21,672 bases of DNA from a virus (IMGVR_UViG_637000261_000001), one strand, 5' to 3'. Numbered from the stretch's first letter, positions 1,673 through 6,363 are shown. Notes: generated by a model from the letters alone, not told the origin. Numbers and translations: made by a program.

Positions 1673-1687
1673 GGTAATGACTCCAAC

Positions 1688-2191
1688 TTACTGATAGTGT
1701 TTTATGTTCAGATAATGCCCGATGACCTTGTCATGCAGCTCCACCGATTTTGAGAACGACAGTGACTTCCGTCCCAGCCTTGCCAGATGTTGTCTCAGAT
1801 TCAGATTATGTCGCTCAATGCGCTGAGTGTAACGCTTGCTGATAACGTGCAGCTTTCCCTTCAGGCGTGATTCATACAGCGGCCAGCCATCCGTCATCCA
1901 TACCACGACCTCAAAGGCCGACAGCAGGCTCAGAAGACGCTCCAGTGTGGCCAGAGTGCGTTCACCGAAGACGTGCGCCACAACCGTCCTCCGTATCCTG
2001 TCATACGCGTAAAACAGCCAGCGCTGACGTGATTTAGCACCGACGTAGCCCCACTGTTCGTCCATTTCAGCGCAGACAATCACATCACTGCCCGGTTGTA
2101 TGCGCGAGGTTACCGACTGCGGCCTGAGTTTTTTAAGTGACGTAAAACCGTGTTGAGGCCAACGCCCATAATGCGTGCACTGGCGCGACAT
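1688..2191 (-). CDS. insB: IS1 InsB
   Basis: 167 aa ORF identical in both IS1 copies; recalled InsB sequence. Confidence 0.9.
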
Positions 2192-2385
2192 CCGACGCCA
2201 TTCATGGCCATATCAATGATTTTCTGGTGCGTACCGGGCTGAGAGGCGGTGTAAGTGAACTGTAGTTGCCATGTTTTACGGCAATGAGAGCAGAGATAGC
2301 GCTGATGTCCGGCAGTGCTTTTGCCGTTACGCACCACGCCTTCAGTAGCGGAGCAGGAAGGACATCTGATGGAAATGGAAGCCAC
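2110..2385 (-). CDS. insA: IS1 InsA (zinc-finger DNA-binding protein)
   Basis: 91 aa [23 protein letters not shown]...; A6C frameshift motif (TTAAAAAAC on the minus strand) at about 2127..2133 in the insA/insB overlap. Confidence 0.9.
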
Positions 2386-2439
2386 GCAAGCACCTTAAAA
2401 TCACCATCATACACTAAATCAGTAAGTTGGCAGCATACC

Positions 2440-2589
2440 CAGCGAGGCAGCTCACGCCATAACGGGACTATATCGTTGGATATTACAGCGCACTAAGGAC
2501 CGCACGAATATACGGTGGGTTTACCCCCCAAACGAAATCGGAAAATCGATACTGGGAAAACTCTAACTCGGTGGCCAGTTTTTGTTGAC
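2440..2589 (+). pseudogene. 3' end of an IS3-family transposase OrfB (ISEhe3-like), continuation of the fragment at 5313..5556
   Basis: Reading frame continues ...[13 protein letters not shown]... across the shared 9 bp CAGCGAGGC; C-terminal motif ...YYSALR...ENRYW is visible in a +1 frame, implying an indel near 2467..2470. The family name is from memory and not verified. Confidence 0.45.
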
Positions 2590-2612
2590 CACTTCACCAT
2601 GGACATTTGAAA

Positions 2613-2637
2613 GAGCCCGCTTTATGCGGGTTTTTTT
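2613..2637 (+). terminator. Rho-independent terminator-like hairpin (CCCGC-TTTAT-GCGGG followed by T7)
   Basis: GC stem with 5 nt loop followed by TTTTTTT at 2631..2637, seen directly. It may belong to the IS3-family element end or be a phage tR'-like terminator. Confidence 0.5.
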
Positions 2638-2687
2638 ATACCTGAAAAACGGCACAGGACGTTAAACGTGCTGGTGGTCAGATGAGT

Positions 2688-2716
2688 TTGCAGATGTGAT
2701 GACATATGGTTATTAT
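2688..2716 (+). promoter_or_regulatory. Candidate sigma70 promoter for the tRNA cluster (TTGCAG, 17 bp spacer, TATTAT)
   Basis: -35 at 2688..2693 and -10 at 2711..2716, about 10 bp upstream of the first tRNA 5' end. Confidence 0.4.
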
Positions 2717-2725
2717 TCTGCCTCC

Positions 2726-2802
2726 GGCCCTTTAGCTCAGTTGGTCAGAGCGAGCGACTCATAATCGCCAGGTCGCTGGTTCAAGTCCAGCAAGGGCCAC
2801 CA
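2726..2802 (+). tRNA. tRNA with anticodon CAT, most similar to tRNA-Ile2 (ileX/ileZ type, lysidine-modified, reads AUA); elongator tRNA-Met not excluded
   Basis: Cloverleaf folds by eye: acceptor GGCCCTT/AAGGGCC, anticodon loop CTCATAA, T arm GCTGGTTCAAGTCCAGC, encoded CCA. Anticodon and T arms match the recalled ileX sequence. Confidence 0.75.
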
Positions 2803-2803
2803 A

Positions 2804-3168: not shown

Positions 3169-3328
3169 GCACTCTGCTTTTATTCCGATTAACTGTGGGT
3201 GGTTTGTTGGATAGAGTGCTTTCCTTACTGTATATATCGTTTCGCCCGCTTTTGCGTTTTTTTCTTTTCAAATCCCTTTCATTTCTCAGTGTAAAACTAC
3301 GCCATCCGTTATTTGCGGAGGTGAGGCT

Positions 3329-3520
3329 ATGAAATCCATGGACAAAATTTCAACGGGCATTGCCTACGGCACCTCCGCCGGCAGTGCCGGCTACTGGTTT
3401 TTGCAGTGGTTGGATCAGGTCAGTCCATCACAGTGGGCTGCGATTGGTGTGCTGGGAAGTCTGCTTCTGGGGCTTCTGACTTATCTGACGAATCTGTATT
3501 TCAAAATAAGAGAAGATTGA
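3329..3520 (+). CDS. Phage 21-type class II holin (pinholin S21-like), C-terminal end replaced by IS600 insertion
   Basis: [30 protein letters not shown]... with dual Met1/Met4 starts and two predicted TM segments; RBS GGAGGTGAGG upstream. The stop codon TGA at 3518..3520 is the first three bases of the IS600 terminal repeat. Confidence 0.65.
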
Positions 3521-4002
3521 GGTAGCCTGAGTTTAACGGACACTCCTTCCTGAAATAGAATGGCATCAGAAGGAGCTAATAATGAGCAGAAAAAACCAAC
3601 GTTACTCTAAAGAGTTCAAAGCCGAAGCTGTCAGAACGGTTCTTGAAAATCAACTTTCGATCAGTGAAGGCGCTTCCCGATTATCCCTTCCTGAAGGCAC
3701 TTTAGGACAATGGGTTACCGCCGCCAGAAAAGGGCTCGGTACTCCTGGTTCCCGCACGGTGGCTGAACTGGAATCTGAAATTCTGCAACTGCGTAAGGCG
3801 TTAAATGAAGCTCGCCTTGAGCGAGATATATTAAAAAAGCAACAGCGTATTTTGCACAGGAGTCGCTGAAAAATACGCGTTAATCGAACAATGGCGACAA
3901 CAATTTCCCATTGAAGCGATGTGTCAGGTATTTGGTGTATCCAGGAGCGGTTATTACAACTGGGTACAGCATGAACCCTCAGACAGAAAACAAAGTGATG
4001 AG
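3518..4002 (+). mobile_element. IS600 (IS3 family) 5' part, interrupted at 4002/4003 by IS629
   Basis: Left end TGAGGTAGCCTGAGTTTAACGGACACTCC at 3518; colinear with the intact copy at 16915..18178 (reverse complement). Confidence 0.9.
3582..3869 (+). pseudogene. IS600 OrfA with a 1 bp deletion in the frameshift A-run (A6 instead of A7), giving an aberrant C-terminus
   Basis: Ends ...ILKKQQRILHRSR, whereas the intact copy (17812..18114) ends ...ILKKATAYFAQESLKNTR; TTAAAAAAGC at 3831..3840 versus TTAAAAAAAGC in copy 2. Confidence 0.8.
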
Positions 4003-4044
4003 TGAACCGCCCCGGGTTTCCTGGAGAGTGTTTTATCTGTGAAC

Positions 4045-4935
4045 TCAGGCTGCCAGATCATCGTTTCCGATGGAAGCATAATAAGCTTTTTCTGCTTCTG
4101 CCGGAGGGATGTGGCCCAGCCTTTCCAGCAATCGTCGATTATTATACCAGTCCACCCACGTGAGTGTGGCCAGTTCCACTTCTGCACGGTTTTTCCAGCT
4201 CTTACGGTGTATTACCTCCGCTTTGTAAAGACCATTGATGCTCTCCGCCATCGCGTTGTCATACGAGTCGCCTGTACTTCCTGTTGATGCCAGTAATCCG
4301 GCTTCCTTAAGCCGCTGTGTGTAGGCCAGCGATACATACTGAGAACCTTTATCACTGTGATGGACCGTGCCGGACGGTCGACGGGCCCATAACGCCTGCT
4401 CCAGAGCATCCAGCACGAATGTCGTTTCCATGGACGATGAGACCCGCCACCCCACGATGTATCCGGCAAACACATCAATAATGAACGCCACATAGACGAA
4501 GCCCTGCCATGTGCTGACGTAAGTAAAATCAGCCACCCACAGCTGGTCAGGTCGTTCTGCCACGAACTGACGGTTTACGCGGTCGCCTGCGGCAACGGCT
4601 TTCCGGCTGATGGTCGTACGGACCTTTTTACCCCGGAGAACACCGGCAAGTCCCATAACCGCCATGAGACGTGCCACAGTGCATCTGGCCACTCTGATAC
4701 CTTCCCGTAACAACTGACGCCAGACTTTACGCACACCGTATACCTGATGATTCCCATCGTATACGCGCAGTATCTCTTTCTTCAGCCAGTCATCGCGCTG
4801 CGCACGGGCACTGCGTTTATCAGGATGATGTCGCTGTTGCTGACAGTGGTAATACGTTGACGGGGCAATATGTAGTTCACTGCATACCGGTCCGACCCCG
4901 TACAGCTTACGCAGCTTATCCAGCAGTGGCATCAC
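4045..4935 (-). CDS. IS629 transposase OrfB
   Basis: 296 aa ORF identical to copy 3 OrfB. Confidence 0.9.
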
Positions 4936-5258
4936 TTTTTCCAGAGGCGGTCGAACTCCGCCTTCGCAAAATAAGCGGAAGCCTGGCGAAGGATATCGTT
5001 ACTGCGGCGCAGTTCACGATTTTCACGTTCCAGCTCTTTCAGACGCTGACGTTCAGCGGTGGTGAGCCCGCCATCACCGCCTCCGGTATCCCGCTCATGC
5101 TGGCGTACCCAGACACGCAGAGTCTCCGGTGTACAGCCAATCTTTGGGGCAATGGAACAAATTGCCGCCCACTGTGAGTCATATTCGCCCTGACTTTCCA
5201 GAACCATACGAATCGCCCTCTGACGGACTTCGGGGGAAAAACGAGTATTTTTAGTCAT
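4932..5258 (-). CDS. IS629 OrfA
   Basis: 108 aa [23 protein letters not shown]...; overlaps orfB in the -1 frame. Confidence 0.9.
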
Positions 5259-5312
5259 CCTGTTTACCTCTTTCTCAGGAAGTTTAGTCTCCAGGATTCC
5301 CGGGGCGGTTCA

Positions 5313-5556
5313 CACCATGAAAGCGCTGGAAATGGCATGGGAAACCCCGTGGTAAGCCCGGCGGGGTGATGTTCCACAGCGATCAGGGCAGTCATTATAC
5401 GAGCAGGCAGTTCCGGCAGTTATTGTGGCGATACCAGATCAGACAGAGTATGAGCCGGCGCGGAAACTGCTGGGATAACAGCCCAATGGAACGCTTCTTC
5501 AGGAGTCTGAAGAACGAATGGATGCCGGTGGTGGGTTACGTAAGCTTCAGCGAGGC
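5313..5556 (+). pseudogene. Internal fragment of an IS3-family transposase OrfB (ISEhe3-like), bounded by IS629 and IS1
   Basis: ...[50 protein letters not shown]... carries the DDE-region motifs; ends in the 9 bp CAGCGAGGC that recurs at 2440..2448. Confidence 0.5.
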
Positions 5557-5571
5557 GGTAATGACTCCAAC

Positions 5572-6075
5572 TTACTGATAGTGTTTTATGTTCAGATAAT
5601 GCCCGATGACCTTGTCATGCAGCTCCACCGATTTTGAGAACGACAGTGACTTCCGTCCCAGCCTTGCCAGATGTTGTCTCAGATTCAGATTATGTCGCTC
5701 AATGCGCTGAGTGTAACGCTTGCTGATAACGTGCAGCTTTCCCTTCAGGCGTGATTCATACAGCGGCCAGCCATCCGTCATCCATACCACGACCTCAAAG
5801 GCCGACAGCAGGCTCAGAAGACGCTCCAGTGTGGCCAGAGTGCGTTCACCGAAGACGTGCGCCACAACCGTCCTCCGTATCCTGTCATACGCGTAAAACA
5901 GCCAGCGCTGACGTGATTTAGCACCGACGTAGCCCCACTGTTCGTCCATTTCAGCGCAGACAATCACATCACTGCCCGGTTGTATGCGCGAGGTTACCGA
6001 CTGCGGCCTGAGTTTTTTAAGTGACGTAAAACCGTGTTGAGGCCAACGCCCATAATGCGTGCACTGGCGCGACAT
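5572..6075 (-). CDS. insB: IS1 InsB
   Basis: Identical to the copy 1 InsB. Confidence 0.9.
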
Positions 6076-6269
6076 CCGACGCCATTCATGGCCATATCAA
6101 TGATTTTCTGGTGCGTACCGGGCTGAGAGGCGGTGTAAGTGAACTGTAGTTGCCATGTTTTACGGCAATGAGAGCAGAGATAGCGCTGATGTCCGGCAGT
6201 GCTTTTGCCGTTACGCACCACGCCTTCAGTAGCGGAGCAGGAAGGACATCTGATGGAAATGGAAGCCAC
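5994..6269 (-). CDS. insA: IS1 InsA
   Basis: Identical to the copy 1 InsA. Confidence 0.9.
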
Positions 6270-6363
6270 GCAAGCACCTTAAAATCACCATCATACACTA
6301 AATCAGTAAGTTGGCAGCATTACCCCATTGCTGGCATAAATTCAGTTTCGAATATTCAGTTAA

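Follow-up and report, generated by a model that had tools for sequence, protein, structure and literature searches.

How can the two halves of a single target duplication come to lie beside two different copies of the same insertion sequence (IS)? The question is raised by a stretch of 21,672 bp, here called the window, which is a heavily decayed lambdoid prophage beside ybhA/modC. Two copies of IS1 in it each adjoin one copy of the 9-bp sequence CAGCGAGGC, and each also adjoins one fragment of a second element, identified below as IS911. CP000036.1, which we take to be the chromosome of Shigella boydii Sb227 (hereafter Sb227), is identical to the window at 13,520 of 13,520 overlapping bases, with window position 1 at record position 644152. 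Comparison with nine related chromosomes leads us to an explanation that we consider likely: two existing IS1 copies recombined with each other and inverted the DNA between them, starting from a layout that relatives still carry (class B below) and nested with further events at IS600 and IS629.

We thus begin with the 9-bp sequence. In the whole window, CAGCGAGGC has exactly two plus-strand matches, at 2440-2448 and 5548-5556. Chance alone would give about 0.27 matches, and because 6 of 100 shuffles gave at least two, the count is weak evidence by itself. It is the placement of the two copies, and not their number, that is decisive: 2440-2448 abuts the end of IS1 copy 1 (1673-2439) and 5548-5556 abuts the start of IS1 copy 2 (5557-6324). 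A chance recurrence of the 9-mer, named in a preliminary description of this DNA as grounds for refutation, therefore does not hold, since the only two matches each sit at an IS1 end. When both flanking fragments, described there as parts of one orfB, are aligned to L001, an intact E. coli IS911, window 5313-5556 corresponds to reference 1501-1743 and window 2440-2596 to reference 1735-1887; the two fragments are adjacent on the intact element and overlap by exactly 9 bp. The scar is, furthermore, intact in eight of the nine relatives. The CAGCGAGGC pair is thus the split scar of one IS1 insertion, as the preliminary description had claimed.

The IS1 copies are direct repeats of 767 and 768 bp, whose sole difference is a T absent from the terminal CATTACC of copy 1. 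They have the length of their family (~768 bp) and its imperfect terminal inverted repeats of ~23 bp; the ends read GGTAATGACTCCAACTTACTGAT and, as the reverse complement, GGTAATGCTGCCAACTTACTGAT. Minus-strand open reading frames (ORFs) of 91 and 167 aa lie in each window copy, and identical copies in relatives encode a 232-aa product with the InsA/InsAB′ transposase domains of IS1, PF03811, PF12759 and PF03400 (precomputed Pfam). The duplication is also of the size made by IS1 (9 bp, sometimes 8), with CAGCGAGGC found on both sides of one IS1, called IS1_A below, in eight related loci. As for the interrupted element, copies annotated 'IS3-like element IS911 family transposase' match window 5313-5556 at 99.6% identity, the copies in relatives reach 99.3-99.5% over positions 1-1104 and 1096-1248, and the terminal sequence ends ...GACCACTTCA, as expected for IS911. 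The element can thus be assigned to IS911 with good reason, and the 99.6% match, obtained in a comparison with IS911 only, makes the earlier label of ISEhe3-like unnecessary; we replace it by IS911.

Self-comparison of the window, together with comparison with reference elements, gives the following segment map, in which IS911_1 and IS911_2 denote two separate copies.

1-930, plus strand: segment a, IS629 (positions 381-1310, cut at the window start), inserted in IS911_1 within the prophage int gene, at a site common to L008, L011 and L012.
931-1334, minus strand: segment b, IS911_1 from position 403 to 1, a separate copy from IS911_2, which bears the 9-bp duplication.
1335-1672, minus strand: segment c, an internal piece of a lambda-like integrase (int) gene that borders IS1 copy 1 on its outer side (annotated integrase genes match it at 100%; translation).
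1673-2439, minus strand: segment d, IS1 copy 1, 767 bp, with insA/insB on the minus strand; its present flanks are segment c and the IS911 3′ end.
2440-2448, plus strand: right-hand half of the 9-bp IS1 target duplication, CAGCGAGGC.
2440-2596, plus strand: segment e, IS911_2 positions 1096-1248 (3′ end), with a cluster of homopolymer differences confined to Sb227.
2597-3517, plus strand: segment f, prophage late region with a phage terminator, tRNA genes (four, at 2726-3036) and a holin gene of the S21 type truncated by IS600 (3329-3520; PF04971).
3518-4002, plus strand: segment g, 5′ part of IS600, positions 1-486.
4003-5312, minus strand: segment h, IS629; half of a split 3-bp duplication, GAG, adjoins it on the IS600 side.
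5313-5556, plus strand: segment i, IS911_2 positions 862-1104, cut at 862 by IS629.
5548-5556, plus strand: left-hand half of the 9-bp IS1 target duplication, CAGCGAGGC.
5557-6324, minus strand: segment j, IS1 copy 2, 768 bp; its present flanks are the IS911 middle and segment k.
6325-6605, minus strand: segment k, 3′ part of prophage ydaE with its downstream spacer, the outer flank of IS1 copy 2 (PF27493).
6606-7386, minus strand: segment l, 3′ part of IS600, positions 1264 to 484, the other half of the IS600 split by IS629.
7387-8696, plus strand: segment m, IS629; the second half of the duplication adjoins it on the IS600 side as CTC, the reverse complement of GAG.
8697 onwards, plus strand: segment n, phage tail-region genes, of which 8697-9707 is the 3′ half of a lytic-transglycosylase (SLT-domain) gene.

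Relatives were found through the IS600-truncated holin (63 aa), which gave ten arrangements on 24 long contigs, nearly all of them complete chromosomes; these were mapped against a library of the segments, and their junctions were then read. Nine chromosomes besides Sb227 share the decayed prophage. In eight of them, a single IS1 (IS1_A) interrupts IS911 between positions 1104 and 1096 and has CAGCGAGGC on either side, and in all nine, a second IS1 (IS1_B) lies between the int and ydaE pieces, c and k. The DNA on the outer sides of the two window copies, at first described as unrelated, thus flanks one and the same IS1 in every relative. All four IS1 junctions of the window match junctions of the relatives base for base over a 25-nt flank; the flanks are paired as c with e and i with k in the window, and as c with k and i with e in the relatives. 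The synteny comparison proposed in the preliminary description thus brings out an alternative pairing of the IS1 flanks in the related chromosomes. Since all four junctions pre-exist in the relatives, the flanks have been exchanged reciprocally inside two existing IS1 copies, and by the same comparison, neither a new IS1 copy nor a new insertion site has arisen. A reciprocal exchange within existing copies points to homologous recombination, presumably of the RecA type.

The relatives fall into two layouts. Class A (L004, L005, L006, L009 and L010) reads c-IS1_B(-)-k-IS600_1(-)-rha...cI-cro-ydaT-IS911_2[1-1104]-IS1_A(-)-e-f-IS600_2(+)-n0-n and retains the normal lambdoid gene order, and class B (L008, L011, L012 and L013) has the class A layout, but with the interval between the two IS600 copies inverted. 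The 3-bp duplication of IS600_1, GCC|GCC, is intact in class A and has its halves beside different IS600 copies in class B; class A is thus the ancestral layout and class B a derived one. The class B copies IS1_A(-) and IS1_B(+) are inverted with respect to each other and stand 2,617 bp apart, separated by e, f, IS600 and k′. An IS629 insertion at IS911_1 position 403 is common to Sb227 and the class B loci L008, L011 and L012, and it is absent from L013 and from the class A loci that span the site (L004, L006, L009 and L010). This shared insertion places Sb227 within class B.

The interval between the inverted IS1 copies of L008 or L011 was then flipped in silico and compared with the window, in which the inversion between the IS629 copies h and m had been undone and that IS629, with one duplication copy, removed. 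The flipped loci align as a single colinear high-scoring segment pair of 5,143 bp at 99.75% identity, with 4 mismatches and 9 gap openings; in the unflipped loci, the middle 4.2 kb aligns in reverse. Three features of an inversion between paired IS copies are thus present: the junctions pre-exist, the precursor copies are inverted and the flip restores colinearity. The IS629 inversion has independent support, because GAG (IS600 positions 484-486) lies beside IS629 h and its reverse complement CTC beside IS629 m, so that the two halves of one duplication are split between them. Compared with class B, Sb227 also lacks about 7.6 kb, comprising IS911_2 positions 1-861, ydaT to rha with one IS600, a second IS600 and the 5′ SLT region, and the scar of this deletion is marked by one IS629 without duplication; the SLT-domain product is shortened by it to 332 aa, from 673 aa in the relatives. 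That a further exchange of IS1 flanks took place, nested with the IS629 inversion, had already been proposed, and the swapped partners and the GAG/CTC split in IS600 bear this out. As to its form, left between an IS1-mediated inversion and a circle, the comparative data favour inversion; the circle is unnecessary and mediation of the transposition type is not needed.

The history that we propose would start with IS1_A as a simple insertion, flanked by two copies of CAGCGAGGC, in an IS911 upstream of the phage tRNA genes, and with IS1_B between truncated int and ydaE. Oppositely oriented IS600 copies would first have recombined, leaving IS1_A and IS1_B inverted about 2.6 kb apart. A reciprocal crossover within the two 768-bp IS1 copies would next have inverted the intervening DNA and swapped the inner flanks, giving int′-IS1-IS911 3′ end and IS911 middle-IS1-ydaE′, with one 9-bp half at each IS1. 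IS629 would then have inserted into IS600, an IS629-associated deletion would have removed about 7.6 kb, and finally, an inversion between IS629 copies would have flipped one IS1 back, producing the present direct repeats. The sequence of these three IS629 steps is our preferred one, and the proposal takes the deposited Sb227 assembly to be correct, as it probably is. Because the class B intermediate is present in four sequenced chromosomes, a circle is not necessary; nor is a new IS1 transposition.

Several points weigh against this history. First of all, among the assemblies examined, the arrangement occurs in one only: an Sb227-specific 69-aa ORF across a junction is on record only in CP000036.1, and the exact junction between IS629 and IS911 position 862 has no match in genome or metagenome contig collections. 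Second, assemblies are notoriously ambiguous about the orientation of segments that lie between inverted repeats, and the junction of IS1 copy 1 with IS911 falls in apparently low-quality sequence. Third, single-nucleotide polymorphisms between IS1 copies locate no crossover, both window copies having the consensus at every variable site. Finally, the comparisons are compatible with more than one order of IS629 insertion, deletion and inversion. In the search for a second example, L016 and L017 were rejected as Sb227-like, having the same 332-aa SLT product but no IS629 beside it and the upstream part of the gene present, and the 237-aa IS600 OrfB proved non-specific as a marker of the arrangement.

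Sequence quality bears directly on these points. At 2433-2598 (about 646584-646749 in CP000036.1), approximately nine homopolymer-type indels or substitutions occur within some 165 bp in Sb227 only, in a cluster shared between the end of IS1 copy 1, the 3′ end of IS911 and the base with which the phage flank begins. The nine relatives and the E. coli IS911 reference all agree against Sb227 at the cluster sites, while segments c, f and k (338, 918 and 281 bp, respectively) are nearly identical to their counterparts in the relatives. The T missing from IS1 copy 1 lies inside this cluster and is thus probably a base-calling error in a low-quality stretch of the 2005 reference. The base is indeed absent from the deposited sequence, as first described; the accompanying remark that its loss may impair the mobility of copy 1 therefore has no sound basis. 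A separate irregularity stands at the junction of the IS629 of segment a (window 930/931; L007 7602/7603), which reads ACC|ACC in L008, L011 and L012 and ACC|C in Sb227, 2 bp short, and is either a real micro-deletion or a further sequence error at a repeat boundary.

Among the alternatives, the best placed is an assembly artefact, in which the true Sb227 chromosome would be class B with the IS629 changes and the 2005 assembly would have been misoriented through the IS1 pair, the IS629 pair or both. We give this a low probability, and not a negligible one, because alternative orientations share the same repeat/unique junctions, so that each path needs an identical set of them. Its confinement to one assembly, the homopolymer cluster and the 2 bp missing at the IS629 junction, taken as signs of poor quality at repeat boundaries, all fit it too, and repeat-caused misassemblies can be mistaken for true rearrangements (PMC8072062). 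The direct-repeat layout, on the other hand, would take two independent orientation errors, and IS-flanked inversions of the same type are real between other complete assemblies at this locus, as in class A versus class B. IS1 (768 bp) and IS629 (1.3 kb) are, furthermore, of a length that paired reads from plasmid clones can bridge in a finished Sanger project.

Excision and reintegration is a far less probable route to the same structure. In a class A ancestor, the direct repeats IS1_B and IS1_A would recombine to excise a circle (ydaE′-IS600-rha...ydaT-IS911[1-1104]-IS1), which would reinsert by IS600×IS600 recombination in the holin gene; the product derived from the locus maps is identical to that of the two inversions. 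A non-replicating circle would, however, have to be recaptured, and the class B intermediate exists in four chromosomes, three of them with the derived IS629 insertion of segment a as in Sb227, so that Sb227 arises most simply from a genome that was already IS600-inverted.

Transposase-driven models, either intramolecular replicative IS1 transposition or insertion of an IS1-3.1 kb-IS1 composite of the Tn9 type, draw on the direct IS1 copies that bound the block and on the cointegrates, adjacent deletions and composite transposons that IS1 is known to form, but the sequence contradicts them and we rate them lowest: the outer 9-mers differ (CCGATTCCA versus CCATTGCTG), leaving no 9-bp duplication around the block, both IS1 copies and all four junctions are already in relatives, and neither the inverted copies nor the new target duplication predicted by replicative inversion is present. 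A tandem duplication of IS1-e-f-g-IS629-i-IS1 by unequal IS629 crossover was discarded, since it leaves the c and k flanks unexplained and is unnecessary given the relatives.

The comparison of loci also yields a number of separate observations on the elements involved. Segment b was considered as part of the same IS911 copy as i and e and set aside, because L007 shows a separate complete IS911::IS629 in int; the remainder of IS911_1 is visible there, from beyond the window's upstream edge. In L005, positions 7037-9269 hold a complete IS911 (1-1248), 63 bp of unique DNA, IS1_A, CAGCGAGGC and the IS911 3′ end. This left flank of IS1_A is unlike that in every other genome compared and suggests either that two IS911 copies were once present here or that a separate IS1-adjacent rearrangement occurred. 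L012 has an additional IS1 (11710-12477) in the spacer downstream of ydaE, 32 bp from IS1_B and with an 8-bp duplication, CGAATATT, which is a recent simple insertion. IS1_B itself is not flanked by a target duplication. In intact E. coli prophages of this type, int and ydaE have the same order and orientation and are separated by a few kb, for which the gene positions give an estimate of about 4.4 kb; an old IS1-adjacent deletion therefore fits and would explain the missing duplication. A search with c and k concatenated ruled out that the two are contiguous in E. coli; they belong to the same prophage arm without adjoining.

The two IS600 copies of L004-L013 lie at about 1847-3110 and 10190-11453, the inversion polymorphism between them is about 7 kb long, and the separated GCC halves are a second case of a split duplication at the Sb227 prophage locus. 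In none of the genomes is IS911_2 flanked by a 3-bp duplication (acc versus cat; L006 7244 and 9269, window 2596/2597), and nothing resembling replication, nin or Q genes is found between ydaT and the tRNA genes. The missing duplication and the missing genes together point to an older IS911-associated deletion that preceded all the arrangements compared.

Elsewhere in the window, the tRNA cluster at 2726-3036 consists of Met-CAT, Arg-TCT, Thr-TGT and Gly-TCC and sits upstream of the S21-type holin gene, which is cut by IS600 after codon 63, the first three IS600 bases supplying its stop codon, TGA. The IS600 at 16915-18178 is complete and, since a matching duplication flanks it (CAA|CAA), is a simple insertion. 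The tail region (8697-21672) also bears IS66-family and other IS3-family transposase genes, and its counterparts in E. coli and enteroinvasive E. coli are annotated with the type III secretion system effector gene ipaHb.

Inversions by homologous recombination between inverted IS copies are known in Shigella, Yersinia pestis, Bordetella pertussis and Burkholderia mallei, and a nested IS-bounded inversion with a split duplication is a familiar result of IS expansion in Shigella and pathogens like it. As there, the exchange in Sb227 is reciprocal and between existing opposed copies, with the flanks swapped and the halves of the duplication parted, and several IS-pair inversions (IS600, IS1 and IS629) are nested; there is no difference in kind. 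What sets Sb227 apart is scale: its inverted segments measure only about 2.6-3.9 kb and 2.1 kb, all within one dead prophage, while the inversions usually reported are large and chromosomal. High rates of repeat-driven rearrangement are reported for IS-rich Shigella genomes (PMC8072062).

Three further comparisons help to place the locus. First, a simple IS1 insertion with a 9-bp duplication is just what the relatives show in their IS1_A, 768 bp inside IS911 and flanked by CAGCGAGGC; in Sb227, on the other hand, the duplication copies have been parted by later recombination. Second, the two direct IS1 copies around 3.1 kb resemble a composite transposon of the Tn9 type, but the Sb227 block lacks a flanking target duplication and, according to the comparative data, arose by rearrangement in place. 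Third, in Shigella dysenteriae 1, the stx region flanked by IS600 amplifies and is deleted by recombination between the flanking IS600 copies. Like the Sb227 locus, it is a decayed lambdoid late region carrying IS1, IS600, IS911 and IS629 and recombined through them; the Sb227 locus, by contrast, has no stx genes and shows inversions, not tandem amplification or deletion between direct repeats.

The layout of Sb227 nevertheless has consequences of its own. Its IS1-bounded block may be deleted or amplified by IS1×IS1 recombination, and we entertain, as a speculation with little chance of being right, that the IS1- and IS629-bounded segments invert in live populations of Sb227, where the two orientations would coexist and one isomer would have been deposited, and that the 3.1-kb block with its four tRNA genes could be excised or amplified because the IS1 copies are now direct repeats. 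If this were true, the dead prophage would be a source of variation in tRNA gene dosage. For users of the Sb227 reference, two flags follow: there are likely base-calling errors at 2433-2598, and the repeat-bounded arrangement calls for caution as a rearrangement marker. The significance of the locus is small, that of a clean and fully traceable case of nested IS recombination scrambling a dead Shigella prophage. More generally, split target duplications allow the order of events to be rebuilt where relatives keep the intermediates.

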